Part shown: positions 545-7,799 of the stretch, piece by piece
Layout of the letters: every line of letters begins with the position of its first letter
Position numbering within the stretch: the first letter of the stretch is position 1
DNA from: a virus
Taxonomy: Duplodnaviria; Heunggongvirae; Uroviricota; Caudoviricetes
Strand: one strand, 5' to 3'
Virus record (IMG/VR): IMGVR_UViG_2713897055_000015
Span: 1-10,263 of that record
DNA: 10,263 nucleotides
The notes under the pieces: generated by a model
Seen by the model: the letters and a program-made list of their open reading frames with translations, nothing else
The model's database searches: none
What the model was told of the DNA's origin: nothing
Translations under genes and position numbers: made by a program

Positions 545-612
545 TCGGGTCCTTCCTGGAATTATGGCCCGTTACGGGGCGGCGACCTCACGGTTTTTCG
601 CTATTTATGAGC
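545..612 (+). other. Lambda-type cos site copy 1 (cosQ-like flank, cosN, I2-like), plus-strand orientation
   Basis: 568-589 CCCGTTACGGGGCGGCGACCTC followed by TTTTTCGCTATTTATGA. From memory this is nearly identical to the lambda cosN region, with the 12-nt cohesive-end sequence GGGCGGCGACCT at 577-588. Confidence 0.75.
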
Positions 613-1304: not shown

Positions 1305-1390
1305 CGGAAAAACGTCATAAATAGCGAAAACGCGCGAGGTCGCCGCCCCGTAACGGGTCCATATGCCGGAAAGGACCCGTAAAAAAAAGC
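1305..1390 (-). other. Lambda-type cos site copy 2 (cosQ-like flank, cosN, I2-like), minus-strand orientation, directly upstream of the Nu1-like gene
   Basis: Reverse complement of 1305-1390 reads ACGGGTCCTTTCCGG..CCCGTTACGGGGCGGCGACCTCGCGCGTTTTCGCTATTTATGACG. The 12-mer is at 1337-1348 on the complement. About 85% identical to copy 1 over ~70 bp, in inverted orientation. Confidence 0.8.
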
Positions 1391-3445: not shown

Positions 3446-3484
3446 AGTCAGAAATTCCTCTTTGACTTAAAAAAATCACAACTG

Positions 3485-3512: not shown

Positions 3513-3608
3513 TGATTGCATTTTGCGCAATAAAATTGAGTTGTGTTGCAAATTATGAAATGATTTACAGCAACAGTAGTCACCATGCTGTTAACCTCGT
3601 AAGCAAAA

Positions 3609-3683: not shown

Positions 3684-4094
3684 TCAGAACGGAATATCAT
3701 CACCGTAGGGGTCATCGTCTCCCGCTGGTGGCTGATTACCCTGTGCGCCTGTGGTTTTGCGTCTGTTCCCGCCAGGACGTGCCGCACGGGCACTGATTAC
3801 GCTGTCTGCAATAACCTGATAACCCTGCCGCGTTTCCCCGTTCTGTCCGGTCCACTGGCTTATCTGCATCACGCCAGATATGCTGGCAACGTCGCCTTTT
3901 TGATGTTTAGCCAGGAAGTCGGCCTGCTTACCAAATGCCATCACCGATAGCCATAACGTAGCCGTTCCGTCATCTGCCTGGCTGCACGGAAGGGGGACCG
4001 CCATACGCGCCAGCGTCATCGGTGTGCCCTTGCTGGTCTGTTTTACCTGCGGGTCGTCCACCAGCCGCCCGTAAGCGGCTATCTGTGCTGTCAT
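3684..4094 (-). CDS. ssb: Single-stranded DNA-binding protein (SSB family, 136 aa)
   Basis: OB-fold-like N-terminal region resembling E. coli SSB, Gly/Gln-rich linker, and the characteristic acidic C-terminal tail ending DDIPF. Confidence 0.88.
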   Translation of the reverse strand: MTAQIAAYGRLVDDPQVKQTSKGTPMTLARMAVPLPCSQADDGTATLWLSVMAFGKQADFLAKHQKGDVASISGVMQISQWTGQNGETRQGYQVIADSVISARAARPGGNRRKTTGAQGNQPPAGDDDPYGDDIPF

Positions 4095-4405
4095 GATTCC
4101 ACCTCTCCGGTTTTAACGTTGATGGTTGTTACCTGTTCCGCTTCGGCAATCTCCCGTTCTGTCAGCGTGGCAAAGTTTGCCGCCGCTGTGGTCATGAATG
4201 CGCTTATCAGGTCGGGATGTTCCTTCGCGTATCCTTCCCGCGTGTGGCGGTCTATCGTTCTGATTGCCACCTTTAAGGTATGCTCAGTCATGTCTAACGC
4301 TTTATATTTTGGCTCTGTTCTGTCTCTGCGAATTTTGGTCATTTGTCGCCCCTGGTTCATGTTTTCGGCTGGCATGTTTGTTAAGTGATTTTGATGTATG
4401 CGCAT
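4091..4405 (-). CDS. Hypothetical protein (104 aa) translationally coupled to ssb (ATGA overlap)
   Basis: SD GAGGGGGTGA upstream of the ATG at 4403-4405; stop overlaps the ssb start. Function not recognised. Confidence 0.6.
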   Translation of the reverse strand: MRIHQNHLTNMPAENMNQGRQMTKIRRDRTEPKYKALDMTEHTLKVAIRTIDRHTREGYAKEHPDLISAFMTTAAANFATLTEREIAEAEQVTTINVKTGEVES

Positions 4406-4452
4406 TTATTTTCACCCCCTCGTTTAAAAAGTTTTTAGTTGTGCCTCCCCCC

Positions 4453-4675
4453 CTCTACCCATCTACCCGAATGCTCATCATGTCAGTAATGGCGCGGCTT
4501 TCAGCGGGTAGATAGCTTTTTGGGCTCCTCTACCTGCCGTCTACCCTGCTACCTGAAACTGATAAAATCAGGTAGAAGAGGTAGAGAGCTTTTATTAGCC
4601 TTCTACCTAGCCCTCTACCCACTTATCATGTTGAATAATATGCGTTTATTTCATTCAGGTAGATGGGGTAGAGGG
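4453..4675. repeat. Iteron array (about 12 copies of a TCTACC-core octamer in both orientations) with AT-rich stretches; putative origin of replication
   Basis: CTCTACCC 4453-4460, ATCTACCC 4461-4468, GGGTAGATA 4506-4514, CTCTACCT 4528-4535, TCTACCCT 4540-4547, CAGGTAGAAG 4569-4578, GGTAGAGA 4580-4587, TTCTACCT 4601-4608, CTCTACCC 4613-4620, GGTAGAT 4658-4664, GGGTAGAGGG 4666-4675. Lies immediately 3' of, and overlapping, the primase gene end. Confidence 0.7.
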
Positions 4676-6438
4676 CTTTTACAAAAAATTATAAAAAACG
4701 CGTCGCAATCGTCTGTTGTAATTGCGTTGGTCTGCGTTACTCCCTTAACTTTTCGCGTAATATATTCATGCCCGTAAACTTTCGCCGCTGGCTTCATGGC
4801 CTTGCTGAACTCAGCCACGTTTAGCGGTTTGCTCCTGCCTGCGTATGCCATAAACGCCAGATAGACGCGGTAAAGGCTGTTCCTGGTCGTGTACTTCACT
4901 GAATCGCCACCGCCGCCCATCATCAGGCCGCGTGCTTCCTCCAGAAAATTCAGGAACTGGCAAAACTCAATAACCGGATCCGTCTGTTGCTTTATTGCCA
5001 GAGCTTCATCACCGTCACGCTGTTCCAGTAGTAAAGCCCGTGCCTTCTCAGGGTCGGTAAAGTTCGCCAGCAATCGGCGGATAATGACAGGGATTTCAGC
5101 CGCAATCTTTTCCGGTAGCTCCCTGTCTTTTTCGGCCTCACTGACGATATTGTCGAAACGGAAAATTACGCGACGACGTGACACACCTCCGGCCCGTTCG
5201 GTGAATATCATCGGGTTATTGTTGGTAGCCAGCACCACCGCCCTGATTACCGCCGTAAAACGCTTCTCATATTTCGGGTTAATTTCCACGGGGTCGCCGC
5301 CCGTGATTTTCTTGATGCCCGTTCCTTCGCCTGTATATTTCGGCTGGTCAGCCAGGACGATAAGACGACTCCCGACAACCTGCGCACGTCCACCAGCATC
5401 ATCAAGCGATGTCATTTCAGCGCTTACCGTGTTCTGTTTCCCTGCCAGAAGGCTGGCTATGTGTGTGAATGTACTTTTACCGCTCCCGCCGTCTCCGGTG
5501 GCCTCAATAAACATCTGCCAGTCGTACCGGTTCGCCATAATCATGTACAGCGCGGCACATATACGCATCATCTTGCGCGGGTCTTTTCCGGCTGCGTGCT
5601 CAAGCCATTTATGAAAGTTTGGCGCGTTGTCGCGGATATTCTCCCCTGGTGCTGGTGGCGTGTACTCAATGCCGTTGTGCGTGGTGATCCAGTTCTCCGG
5701 CGTGTGCGGGGAAAATTCCCCCGTTTTCAGGTCAAGCGCACCATTGGCGAACGGCAGCAAATCGCCGGACGGCTCGCCCATTGGTTCGGCAATAACTTTT
5801 AACGCTTCCACGGCGTTATTGATTACGCGCTTGCTGAAAGTGGCCCTGTGCTCTGAATAGATCGCCACCATTTCGCGGCTAAGTTCCATTGTGCTGACCG
5901 GACACCATACCCCGCCGCGCCATACGTGAACGATTTCACTTTCCGGATGCACACAAACGCCATCAAATCGACCAGCAAGCATCTGTGCGCGCTCACTGTC
6001 TGCCATTTGTGCCAGTTGCGTATTTTTCTGCTCCGGCATGGTAAGCCCTGCGGCAATATTTTCACGCTCAGCATTCAGATAGCGCCGCCAGTTTTCACAC
6101 TTCTGGACGTGCATTCCTTCGTGGTAAAAATTTGCGTCCTGAATATCTGCCGCCGCCAGCTTCTGACCAATCTTTTTGGTCTCCACTAAATCCAGTTCTC
6201 CGGCCTGGTACAGCCTTACGCGCTTTTTCCCATCCGGAACAATTTTCAGCGCATCAAGTTCGGCAAGCTGCTTTGGCCCAAGCCACACAGGCGGCACATT
6301 ATCGCCGGATGCGGGGCCATCCTGCTCCTGCCATTGTTTCGCGTGCGACCAGGCATCACTACCCGCAAAGATAATTACCTCTGTGTCTTTGTGTTTTATT
6401 CCGCGTGGCTGTTTTTTTACGTTCGGTGCCAGTTTCAT
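4651..6438 (-). CDS. Primase-helicase of the P4 alpha / D5 family (595 aa) with a P-loop NTPase domain
   Basis: Walker A motif GDGGSGKST within a region typical of phage/plasmid primase P4-family C-terminal domains; position (upstream of iterons, downstream of immunity-type genes) matches satellite replication genes. The final ~17 codons are encoded by iteron sequence. Confidence 0.88.
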   Translation of the reverse strand: MKLAPNVKKQPRGIKHKDTEVIIFAGSDAWSHAKQWQEQDGPASGDNVPPVWLGPKQLAELDALKIVPDGKKRVRLYQAGELDLVETKKIGQKLAAADIQDANFYHEGMHVQKCENWRRYLNAERENIAAGLTMPEQKNTQLAQMADSERAQMLAGRFDGVCVHPESEIVHVWRGGVWCPVSTMELSREMVAIYSEHRATFSKRVINNAVEALKVIAEPMGEPSGDLLPFANGALDLKTGEFSPHTPENWITTHNGIEYTPPAPGENIRDNAPNFHKWLEHAAGKDPRKMMRICAALYMIMANRYDWQMFIEATGDGGSGKSTFTHIASLLAGKQNTVSAEMTSLDDAGGRAQVVGSRLIVLADQPKYTGEGTGIKKITGGDPVEINPKYEKRFTAVIRAVVLATNNNPMIFTERAGGVSRRRVIFRFDNIVSEAEKDRELPEKIAAEIPVIIRRLLANFTDPEKARALLLEQRDGDEALAIKQQTDPVIEFCQFLNFLEEARGLMMGGGGDSVKYTTRNSLYRVYLAFMAYAGRSKPLNVAEFSKAMKPAAKVYGHEYITRKVKGVTQTNAITTDDCDAFFIIFCKSPLPHLPE

Positions 6439-6739: not shown

Positions 6740-6967
6740 TTATTCTCCGGTGTGGGGCGCGTTATTATTTTCGTGAATTGCCATCGCCTTATCCAGTTCA
6801 TCAATTACAGGCGATAGTAATGTCTGAACGGCGGCAAGCATTAATGACGAAGATTCTTCTCCAGCTTCCGTTGCTTCAATTAATTTAATTAACAACGCAT
6901 TCATTTCACGCGCTTTAATTAATGCGTTTTCAGAATGAATAAGAACATCATAGGGTATTTTATTCAT
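6740..6967 (-). CDS. Hypothetical small protein (75 aa), overlapping the upstream Icd-like gene by 8 nt
   Basis: ORF with protein-like composition in operon context. Function unknown. Confidence 0.55.
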   Translation of the reverse strand: MNKIPYDVLIHSENALIKAREMNALLIKLIEATEAGEESSSLMLAAVQTLLSPVIDELDKAMAIHENNNAPHTGE

Positions 6968-7130
6968 GACTCACCCCCTGACGAATACGGGCGACAAAAA
7001 TCAGATGTGCGTGCGGCAGCTGGGCGCGTGCTTCGCGTTCAGTGGCAGCGGTAACGGTGTAAATATCAATGCTGCTGTGGTGGCACTGCATAAAGCGCCA
7101 GACAAAGTAAGGGCGTGCGGATACAGCCAT
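6960..7130 (-). CDS. Icd-like small protein, copy 2 (56 aa; MAVSARPYFVWRF...ARIRQGVSHE)
   Basis: Start chosen at the internal ATG (7128-7130), preceded by AGGAG at 8-nt spacing. The C-terminal 50 aa are paralogous to copy 1. The long N-terminal extension in the ORF track (168 aa) is not supported. Confidence 0.6.
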   Translation of the reverse strand: MAVSARPYFVWRFMQCHHSSIDIYTVTAATEREARAQLPHAHLIFVARIRQGVSHE

Positions 7131-7194
7131 GTGAAAGGCTCCTACAGTAATTTTAAGGAGTCTCGCTACTACGCTGCTAAACGGGGTGGCGAGA

Positions 7195-7256
7195 CGTAAC
7201 AGGGTTAGCAGACTGGCACTGTAGGAACCAGCGAGCGCAAAGGCTCCCCCGTTACG
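7195..7256 (-). ncRNA. Candidate CI/C4-like immunity RNA carrying a seqB-like element
   Basis: On the minus strand CGUAACGGG (from plus 7248-7256) can pair with CCCUGUUACG (from plus 7195-7204), closing a ~60-nt element that contains GGUUCCUACAGUGCCAGUCUGCUAACC. That inner sequence is complementary to an upstream stretch (7321-7360) and to the SD region of Icd-like copy 2 (7138-7150). Confidence 0.4.
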
Positions 7257-7416
7257 CCCCGCCATAATGCGGGTATGGGTAGGCTTACGGACACAAAAAA
7301 ACCGCATATCGGAATATAAGCGGCTGTCCGCTACAGTATTCAGGCTGCTAAACCCGGTCGCCATGTGGGCGACGGGGGAAGCATACAGCCCCGTTATAAT
7401 TTTTTGCAAGCGGTTT

Positions 7417-7614
7417 TTACGCATGATGTGACCCCTGACGAATACGGGCGGCGAATACAGCAACACAACCGGACGGGCAACGGCTACGCGCTTCGCGTTC
7501 CGTCCAGGCGGTTACGTGGATGATTTGATGGTCTGACGCGCCAAAGGCAATAAAACGCCACACAAAGGCGGTTTGTGTGTGCGCTAGTCGTGGGGTATGC
7601 TGTCTTACAGCCAT
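7417..7614 (-). CDS. Icd-like small protein, copy 1 (65 aa; MAVRQHTPRLAHTQTAFVWRF...ARIRQGSHHA)
   Basis: Start chosen at the ATG (7612-7614) preceded by AGGAG at 8-nt spacing, same start context as copy 2 (AGGAG-N8-ATGGCTGTA). The ORF-track extension to 7737 is unsupported. Confidence 0.55.
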   Translation of the reverse strand: MAVRQHTPRLAHTQTAFVWRFIAFGASDHQIIHVTAWTEREARSRCPSGCVAVFAARIRQGSHHA

Positions 7615-7689: not shown

Positions 7690-7799
7690 CATCGCACCAC
7701 TCATTTTTAACCTATCAGTAAGTGAATCGCACTTCAAGCCTTTCTCTGAAATTTTTTTTTGTGTATACTGAATCGCACCAACTTAGAGAGGATTCAGTA
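7690..7799. promoter_or_regulatory. Divergent promoter/operator region with repeated (TG)AATCGCAC motifs and a T9 tract
   Basis: ATCGCAC at 7692-7698, GTGAATCGCAC at 7722-7732, TGAATCGCACC at 7770-7780; TATACT -10-like hexamer at 7764-7769 preceded by TG, upstream of the RHH gene; the minus-strand immunity-type operon starts in the opposite direction. Confidence 0.5.

Follow-up and report, generated by a model that had tools for sequence, protein, structure and literature searches.

A predicted EcCICFT073-type replication origin and its apparent overlap with the initiator gene in an Escherichia coli island

In the viral DNA analysed here (10,263 nucleotides, hereafter the window), the reading frame of a putative replication initiator continues, as the sequence reads, into a cluster of short repeats, and we were interested whether gene and repeats indeed share the same DNA and what the repeats are for. 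A first-pass annotation had placed an iteron origin beside this gene and partly within it, with about 17 codons at the 3' end being encoded by iterons, and had suggested that the protein's own binding sites constrain its C-terminus.

The island and its initiator gene

Every gene of the window lies on the minus strand, and Pfam identified int and AlpA genes among them. Two exact copies of a lambda-type cosN, matching the cosN consensus, were found at 577-588 and 1337-1348, in agreement with the cos1 and cos2 sites of EcCICFT073 given in the supplement of the 2018 paper (PMC6092414); the cos sequence of that supplement had no match in the window, the consensus cosN being matched instead. The element shows the features of a phage-inducible chromosomal island (PICI), namely int and alpA, genes that run in one direction, a length of about 11 kb and a helper cos site, and unidirectional transcription has been described for PICIs of Gram-negative bacteria (PMC6092414). 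Judged from its sequence, the window is an E. coli PICI of the EcCICFT073 type, as the gene order common to both (int, alpA, DUF4222, initiator, ori, small gene, ssb and capsid genes) also suggests. Integration sites vary among the relatives: one of them (L001) is an 11.5-kb insert splitting tqsA, and EcCICFT073 is located at ycfD-phoQ. A contig scan for relatives returned three loci and yielded two distant comparators, from Serratia and Morganella.

The initiator reading frame (4651..6438, minus strand; 595 aa as the window reads) is annotated as a 'DNA primase family protein' and matched Pfam D5_N, DUF5906 and Pox_D5 as well as TIGR01613. It is 90% identical to the initiator of EcCICFT073, which ends DAFL*, and 40% identical to residues 326-756 of P4 alpha, which comprise the helicase and origin-binding parts. 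Residues 193-430 matched SaPI5 PriRep (PDB 7ola), and residues 486-574 (4717..4983, minus strand) matched the origin-binding domain of P4 alpha (PDB 1ka8, chain residues 2-89; phmmer E 1e-6 to 8e-6), suggesting a winged-helix domain that presumably reads the iterons. A counterpart of the P4 alpha primase part (residues 1-325) was not found in the initiator, and a relaxed Pfam scan of its N-terminal 160 residues gave no family match. The protein is hence predicted to be an SF3 helicase with a C-terminal winged-helix DNA-binding domain. The homologues listed for the initiator were at least 98% identical throughout; single-sequence AlphaFold2 modelling of the 582-aa form reached a pLDDT of 39, and the domain assignment rests on sequence instead. 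The N-terminal 140 residues are without a family match.

Downstream of the initiator follow a small gene (phrog_1231; 4091..4405, minus strand), which overlaps the start of the next gene, and ssb for a single-stranded DNA-binding protein (3684..4094, minus strand; Pfam SSB, E 3.5e-15). NCBI PGAP starts the small gene of the relatives at the equivalent of window position 4342 (83 aa), and by this choice of start codon the intergenic region is about 60 nt longer in the window than in EcCICFT073.

The iteron cluster

Exact TCTACC or GGTAGA occurs 11 times in the 10.3-kb window, always inside 4454-4672, compared to 2.2 copies expected and a maximum of 7 in shuffled sequences (0 of 200 shuffles reached 11). 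A twelfth, degenerate copy, GCTACC, is found at 4548, so that the earlier count of about 12 TCTACC cores in both orientations, with AT-rich stretches between them, was accurate; three AT-rich spacers could be assigned. Seven iterons lie on the plus strand (4454, 4462, 4529, 4540, 4548, 4602 and 4614) and five on the minus strand (4507, 4571, 4580, 4658 and 4667), with an oriented consensus of about SCCN-TCTACC-Y.

At the edge distal to the initiator gene, shortly before the ribosome-binding site of the gene that follows, an A/T-tract palindrome, GTTTAAAAAGTTTT (4422..4436), is invariant in our alignment (A2), and akin AAAA(C/G)TTTT motifs occur at the matching relative position in the Serratia and Morganella loci. 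The iteron pair 4454 and 4462 (4454..4467, plus strand), invariant in 8 of 8 aligned relatives, is separated from a single inverted iteron (4507..4512, minus strand; GGTAGA on the plus strand) by the GC-rich block CAGTAATGGCGCGG(C/G)TTTCA (4485..4505), which is invariant in the same alignment. Its 14-nt core was present in 13 of the 15 PICI loci retrieved from E. coli and Shigella, EcCICFT073 included; no exact match was found in L006 and L016, and it is absent from the Serratia and Morganella relatives. Iterons 4529 and 4540, followed by the degenerate GCTACC (4529..4553, plus strand), oppose the pair 4571 and 4580 (4571..4585, minus strand) across a short AT-rich spacer of 17 nt and 24% GC (4554..4570). 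In the same manner the pair 4602 and 4614 (4602..4619, plus strand) opposes the pair 4658 and 4667 (4658..4672, minus strand), which is invariant in all aligned relatives, across an AT-rich spacer of 38 nt and 26% GC (4620..4657). This longer spacer is a candidate DNA melting site: its duplex stability is low (top 2-3% of the window's 25-mers), and its architecture agrees with published SaPI and PICI origins (PMC6092414, PMC9371898). The tract nearest to the initiator gene (4673..4698, 19% GC) exceeds the rest of the region in AT content and is its least stable part; in the relatives it holds the natural stop codon TAA of the initiator. Folded as a single strand, the origin is strongly structured (z = -5.5), which is explained by the inverted iterons and is no evidence for a structured RNA or DNA element; a Rfam scan of the origin detected no RNA family.

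Scanning of the CFT073 sequence in this analysis, not a published iteron listing, established that the EcCICFT073 origin also has 11 copies of the core TCTACC, lying immediately 3' to the initiator gene; the full element contains 12 copies, the remaining one being a lone site in int. EcCICFT073 shares the invariant CAGTAATGGCGCGG block with the window, whereas the sequence between is diverged and megablast aligns just part of it. One iteron differs in position and orientation: in EcCICFT073-type origins, an inverted copy about 9 nt away takes the place of one of the 4602/4614 pair, leaving the total at 11, and origins beyond megablast divergence still show the 11-site layout. Among eight aligned origins with a mean column identity of 82%, invariant columns made up 82% of the core but 26% of the non-core positions, an excess reached by 0 of 10,000 permutations. 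A pri-ori segment of EcCICFT073 maintains a plasmid, and deletion of ori or pri impairs its maintenance (Fillol-Salom et al. 2018, ISME J, PMC6092414). With this ortholog published as a PICI ori and with residues 486-574 matching 1ka8, the earlier assignment of an iteron origin beside the initiator gene holds; the replication origin of the window is, by this homology, real but already described.

In the relatives from Serratia and Morganella, of 52-53% identity, the iterons at the same place are TGTTCAC and TGTTCAT, and in these two as well as in P4 the iterons lie 25-50 nt past the stop codon. Their origin-binding domains are closer to that of P4 than to that of the window, and in sequence this domain differs between TCTACC-type and TGTTCA-type relatives, whereas capsid and integrase modules differ among relatives with identical iteron type. 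Iteron type thus appears to go with the class of origin-binding domain, TCTACC versus TGTTCA(C/T), which would fit specific binding of the initiator to the iterons.

One extra base and the readings of the locus

The reach of the gene into the iterons results from one extra base in a homopolymer. At 4693..4698 the window has a run of six A (T6 on the coding strand), which puts the last codon out of frame and lengthens the protein from 582 to 595 aa, the terminal Leu being replaced by a read-through tail of 14 residues (net +13) into the origin, with PLPHLPE encoded by 4654-4674. The run is A5 in 14 of 14 relatives with matching flanks and A6 in the window only, and the +1 frameshift likewise sets the window apart from EcCICFT073. 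Read with A5, the protein ends ...DCDAFL* with the stop at the equivalent of 4689-4691, and 16 nt separate the consensus stop from the nearest iteron core, which ends at 4672. All 17 annotated or called relatives (L001-L014, L020-L022) end ...DAFL* before the first iteron, a 582-aa protein (P0007) found on 13 contigs is identical to the window protein up to ...DCDAF, and each of the 120 best-matching homologues in the database has a length of 582 aa. Megablast with a 96-nt query across the A-run gave no 100% match, and none of the 148 complete E. coli genomes with a match had A6; the exact 595-aa protein was not found in a collection of 15 billion proteins. A search of 5.8 billion protein clusters with the tail included gave 0 matches covering the tail, with just 6 candidates scored, and taken alone is negative evidence of limited weight. 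Three further sites, at 1381-1388, 3469-3475 and 7752-7760, show window-specific +1 expansions of A/T runs, and compared to relatives of 99.5-99.8% identity the homopolymer indels of the window are all +1 and all in A/T runs, so that A6 looks like a homopolymer sequencing error. The extra A is most likely such an error and otherwise a private recent mutation; homopolymer slippage also arises in living cells, as in mismatch-repair mutators. The iteron-encoded C-terminal tail is an artefact or a private mutation. What is left of the described overlap is that the window as read includes 2 of 12 iterons (4658 and 4667) in the extended frame, which does not apply to the A5 relatives, and that two iterons do contribute to the codons in question, the other approximately 10 codons belonging to the AT-rich tract in which the stop normally lies. 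The suggested constraint of the C-terminus by iterons finds no support in the 17 relatives, and as the overlap comes from one window-only base, the finding becomes ordinary.

A genuine overlap, in which binding sites and C-terminal peptide constrain each other, could be read from the window's frame 4651-6438 (minus strand) as given, which crosses iterons 4658 and 4667. However, it depends on the window-only A6 and is opposed by the earlier stop in all 17 relatives and the best 120 homologues, by the tail being covered by none of the 6 candidates scored from the 5.8 billion clusters, by the three other +1 homopolymer differences, and by the position of the iterons outside the gene in distant relatives and P4; it is largely refuted, and we consider it highly improbable. 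It is just as improbable that A6 is real and that slippage in an A5/A6 tract switches the 14-residue tail on; in such a case the first iteron pair would encode a hydrophobic tail rich in proline, joined to the origin-binding domain, and altered origin binding or initiator turnover might tune the replication of the island.

The repeats might instead, or in addition, act mainly as operators controlling the small-gene/ssb operon or the initiator itself, since initiators of iteron replicons often repress transcription too, and the cluster is located directly upstream of the next co-oriented genes. Neither an intrinsic terminator nor a sigma-70-like promoter was predicted in 4250-4800. The missing terminator between initiator gene and cluster suits such a role, and with the origin sitting between co-oriented genes it makes it plausible that replication and the transcription of the downstream genes use this DNA in common, whereas the promoter result argues against operators and lends no support to the ssb-operon promoter region of the earlier description. 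In addition, Gram-negative PICIs are described as unidirectionally transcribed, deletion of the orthologous EcCICFT073 region impaired replicon function (PMC6092414), and inverted pairs around AT-rich DNA fit helicase-loading origins (PMC9371898), all of which renders a mainly regulatory function unlikely. Short repeats in two orientations are also known from cosB and attP arms, but a packaging site (cosB or pac repeats bound by terminase) or arm-type integrase sites can hardly be expected here, as the exact cosN copies are elsewhere (577-588 and 1337-1348), the cluster is mid-element and about 4.4 kb from int with att sites at the element ends, and the iteron type follows the DNA-binding domain of the initiator and not the capsid or integrase modules.

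Very probably, 4406-4698 is the ori of an EcCICFT073-type PICI with a self-loading initiator, a design that does not include a run of the gene into the iterons. The upstream gene would encode an initiator-helicase composed of D5_N, an SF3 ATPase and the C-terminal winged-helix origin-binding domain, with the latter reading TCTACC(Y) iterons. By analogy to SaPI Rep and P4 alpha, the initiator may assemble at the opposed iteron pairs, open the AT-rich stretch and load as a helicase. The extra A in the run holding the natural stop would shift the frame at the last codon and lead the tail into the iterons. This has little meaning beyond annotation, in which the region should be labelled as PICI ori and the initiator given as 582 aa, or the last-codon frameshift flagged. 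Nevertheless, it is a caution that a lone homopolymer miscall beside a stop codon can fake a meaningful overlap of gene and cis-element.

Comparison with plasmid, P4 and SaPI origins

Classical plasmid iteron origins (pSC101, F, P1 and R6K type) are made of direct repeats of 17-22 bp, contain DnaA boxes and frequently IHF sites, and are served by a Rep protein without helicase activity. The origin of the window resembles them in its repeated, predicted initiator-binding sites beside AT-rich DNA but differs in its cores of 6-7 bp, its inverted sets and its helicase initiator. With no DnaA box (up to 2 mismatches) or GATC in 4400-4700 and no IHF consensus in 4300-4800, it does not correspond to a classical Rep/DnaA-dependent plasmid origin.

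Phage P4, whose ori/crr repeats the first-pass annotation had proposed for comparison, uses different iterons: TGTTCACC in P4 compared to TCTACC in the window, although both end ACC-Y. Exact TGTTCACC was not found in the window, and one-mismatch matches were scattered. Immediately after the alpha gene, the crr of P4 carries 10 copies of the octamer TGTTCACC, some in each orientation. In P4, ori and crr are two cis sites 4.5 kb apart, whereas all 11 sites of the window form one cluster; P4 has t-alpha between gene and repeats, where the window is without a predicted terminator; and P4 alpha carries an N-terminal primase domain, which the window initiator does not. The octamer, the two-site layout and the combined primase-helicase-origin-binding protein all set the window apart from the P4 ori/crr system, and P4-like TGTTCA(C/T) iterons accompany the relatives of the window protein in Serratia and Morganella.

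In SaPIs, Rep binds 6-12 iterons of five or six nucleotides directly 3' of rep via a C-terminal winged-helix domain, and SaPI origins have at least two iterons per side of an AT-rich region, in opposite directions (PMC9371898). The window has the same layout, with the cluster directly downstream of the initiator, a number of iterons within 6-12 and at least two opposed iterons per AT-rich side, and in both systems the adjacent reading frame encodes a (here predicted) SF3 helicase with C-terminal winged helix. Sequence similarity to SaPI is only distant and the iteron sequence is different; the island of the window is Gram-negative and, unlike SaPI, transcribed unidirectionally, and its iterons form three modules accompanied by two or three AT-rich tracts, compared to the one central tract of SaPI. 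The replicon family thus seems to be built from a P4-alpha-type helicase with an origin-binding domain, followed directly by its own inverted short iterons, whose sequence changes with the binding domain from TCTACC in E. coli PICIs to TGTTCA(C/T) in P4 and the Serratia and Morganella relatives.

Iteron cluster and its conservation

The 10,263-base window contains 11 copies of the hexamer TCTACC (GGTAGA on the opposite strand), all of them within 4454-4672. In dinucleotide-preserving shuffles of the window, 2.2 TCTACC copies were expected and the maximum was 7, and 11 were never attained. With a degenerate twelfth iteron, GCTACC at 4548, the core-oriented consensus is approximately SCCN-TCTACC-Y. 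Seven iterons lie on the plus and five on the minus strand, arranged in three modules in which plus sites stand opposite minus sites with a spacer between them. AT-rich spacers were detected at 4554-4570 (24% GC), 4620-4657 (26% GC) and 4673-4698 (19% GC), the latter two belonging to the 25-mers of lowest stability in the window. The first-pass annotation of TCTACC repeats in both orientations with AT-rich stretches was borne out, with 11 exact copies and one degenerate copy.

When eight origins of E. coli islands were aligned (mean column identity 82%), 82% of the 66 iteron-core columns were invariant compared to 26% among the 183 remaining columns of the intergenic region. This core invariance was not attained in 10,000 trials in which eleven hexamers were placed at random, which at the sequence level is evidence for selection on the TCTACC repeats. 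In two islands (L011 and L012) the intergenic DNA is beyond megablast alignment, yet the 11-site layout is kept. Origins of the CFT073 type differ by one site that is shifted by about 9 nt and inverted, the total still being 11.

Between iterons within the origin, an invariant GC-rich block of 21 nt, CAGTAATGGCGCGG(C/G)TTTCA, was observed at 4485-4505. Among 15 fetched E. coli and Shigella PICI loci, 13, with EcCICFT073 one of them, share the 14-nt core of this block despite diverged flanks; the exact core was not found in L006 or L016, nor the block in the Serratia or Morganella relatives. The block may serve in priming, or be bound by a host factor or accessory protein. An A/T-tract palindrome, AAAA-C/G-TTTT, lies at the distal end of the origin (4422-4436), directly upstream of the ribosome-binding site of the next gene. 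It has equivalents in the Serratia and Morganella loci (L017, about 4018-4030, and L018, about 3596-3606) and is kept across genera though the iterons differ. The start codon of the small gene that follows (minus strand) is ambiguous: the NCBI PGAP start in close relatives is equivalent to 4342 (83 aa), whereas a strong ribosome-binding site, GAGGGGG, precedes the ATG at 4403-4405, which matches the start annotated in EcCICFT073.

The 3' end of the initiator gene

As read from the window, the initiator ORF (4651-6438, minus strand) encodes 595 aa with the C-terminus ...DCDAFFIIFCKSPLPHLPE*, and the iterons at 4658 and 4667 form the codons of PLPHLPE. Compared with a 99.6% identical relative, one A is the sole difference in 361 columns, giving the window A6 (4693-4698) where the relative has A5. 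The A5 version reads GCG TTT TTA TAA on the coding strand and leads to a protein end ...DCDAFL*, 16 nt short of the nearest iteron core. This ...AFL* end is at the same place in all 17 annotated or called relatives (L001-L013, EcCICFT073 and L020-L022; 77-99.8% DNA identity), and the run was A5 in 14/14 relatives with matchable flanks. A 96-base query over the A-run matched 148 complete genomes, none of them identically (best 95/96, with a 95-base subject span). All of the best 120 database homologues of the initiator have 582 aa; one of this length on 13 contigs (P0007) agrees with the window protein in every residue up to ...DCDAF, which is followed by a terminal L. The exact 595-aa sequence was not found among about 15 billion proteins, and with the 51 C-terminal residues as query, no hit extended over the tail.

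In a comparison with two islands of 99.8% and 99.5% identity, the window had one additional base at four A/T homopolymers, 4693-4698, 3469-3475, 1381-1388 and 7752-7760. In the same four runs it is one base longer than every relative with a matchable site. Only one indel was found outside homopolymers, and about 7 substitutions in 5.9 kb separate the window from its closest relative. This one-directional pattern suggests systematic over-calling of homopolymers in the source sequence, by sequencing or assembly error, or a mutator lineage; as the indels are +1 only and substitutions are few, it looks like sequencing or assembly error.

The claim that iterons overlap the 3' end of the gene and encode the C-terminus of the initiator therefore depends on the A6 of the window, as the relatives stop earlier, and the iteron-encoded tail, being private to the window sequence, is no evidence for the proposed constraint of the C-terminus by the binding sites. 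The natural stop codon, as predicted from the relatives, is within the outer AT-rich tract of the origin, and gene and origin abut.

The island and other readings of the repeats

All long ORFs of the window are on the minus strand and include a tyrosine integrase, an AlpA regulator, a DUF4222 protein, the D5_N/DUF5906/Pox_D5 'primase', a small protein, SSB, and a lambda-E-type major capsid protein with neighbouring head genes, which is the Gram-negative PICI organisation of Fillol-Salom et al. 2018 (PMC6092414). When a 501-base segment with the iterons was searched against 5,426 complete E. coli genomes, 622 had a match, nearly always on the chromosome. In strain SMBL, tqsA is split by the element, which measures about 11.5 kb there. 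Five loci (L003, L007, L009, L010 and L019) share the initiator-origin module with the window and have different head modules. The types observed were lambda E/D-type capsid and decoration genes (the type of the window), HK97-type capsid with small terminase, a ClpP-capsid fusion, and a full set of capsid, protease, portal, HNH and terminase; islands carrying this module are strongly mosaic. A C4 antisense RNA (Rfam RF01695, 71.5 bits), from the family of the P4 CI immunity RNA, was detected at 7182-7269 (minus strand), and the long ORF overlapping it (6960-7466) is probably spurious.

Other functions of the repeats were considered. A packaging site is rejected since two exact lambda cosN sequences (GGGCGGCGACCT) are located elsewhere, at 577-588 (plus) and 1337-1348 (minus), in opposite orientation on either side of ORF 807-1247, the product of which is similar at its N-terminus to the helix-turn-helix of a small terminase (phrog_57); this agrees with the two cos sites of EcCICFT073 (PMC6092414). 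The repeats might conceivably act as an operator, but no sigma-70-like promoter or terminator was predicted in 4250-4800. The 'ssb-operon promoter' of the first-pass annotation is therefore an assumption, and the downstream genes may be transcribed by read-through of the origin. Features of a classical plasmid-type origin are missing, with no DnaA box, IHF consensus, GATC or P4 octamer in the scanned origin interval.

Comparison with P4, SaPI and EcCICFT073 origins

The initiator is 40% identical to residues 326-756 of P4 alpha, which comprise the helicase and the origin-binding domain of alpha. Its residues 486-574 match the winged-helix domain by which P4 alpha binds its origin (crystal structure 1ka8), and residues 193-430 match SaPI5 PriRep (7ola). 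The N-terminal ~140 residues (6019-6438, minus strand) gave no Pfam or PDB sequence match, and the annotated 'DNA primase', which differs from P4 alpha by lacking its primase domain, is a putative primase. A single-sequence structure model was unusable (pLDDT 39).

In two distant relatives from other genera the architecture is kept and the iteron sequence changed: in the Serratia relative (53% identity), copies of ACTGTTCAC on both strands begin 35 nt past the stop codon, and in the Morganella relative (52% identity), copies of (A/G)TGTTCAT begin 25 nt past it. In the P4 record, crr is annotated as following immediately on the 3' side of the alpha gene, and its ten type-1 octamers (TGTTCACC) are distributed over both strands. 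The comparison with P4 repeats proposed earlier showed a different iteron, the window core being TCTACC and the P4 octamer TGTTCACC. In one stretch of the origin-binding domain, P4, Serratia and Morganella are alike and the E. coli PICI proteins deviate from them; as a two-class correlation only, this agrees with the domain setting the iteron specificity.

SaPI Reps are self-loading helicases whose C-terminal winged-helix domain reads 6-12 penta- or hexanucleotide iterons directly downstream of rep, with at least two iterons in opposite directions on each side of an AT-rich region (PMC9371898). The window agrees in all of this, in the predicted helicase and winged-helix domain, in number and place of the iterons, and in their opposed arrangement around AT-rich DNA. 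By analogy, the initiator would bind the TCTACC iterons, an AT-rich spacer would then melt, and the initiator would be loaded as helicase.

The PICI origin has been located directly 3' of the replication initiation gene, and the pri-ori segment of EcCICFT073 maintains a temperature-sensitive plasmid, whereas ori or pri deletions do not (PMC6092414). In the EcCICFT073 sequence, taken by the coordinates of Table S1 of that study, the gene order is that of the window, the initiator (584 aa) is 90% identical, and 11 TCTACC/GGTAGA sites are within 288 bases directly 3' of its gene, with one other copy in the entire 13-kb stretch. Therefore, the cluster of the window is the ortholog of an already described and tested origin. 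The predicted origin has the position and architecture of the published one, and likewise its iteron core, as judged from our scan of the CFT073 sequence. The repeat cluster is real but already known, and the overlap with the coding sequence was the sole new claim, arising from one extra base.
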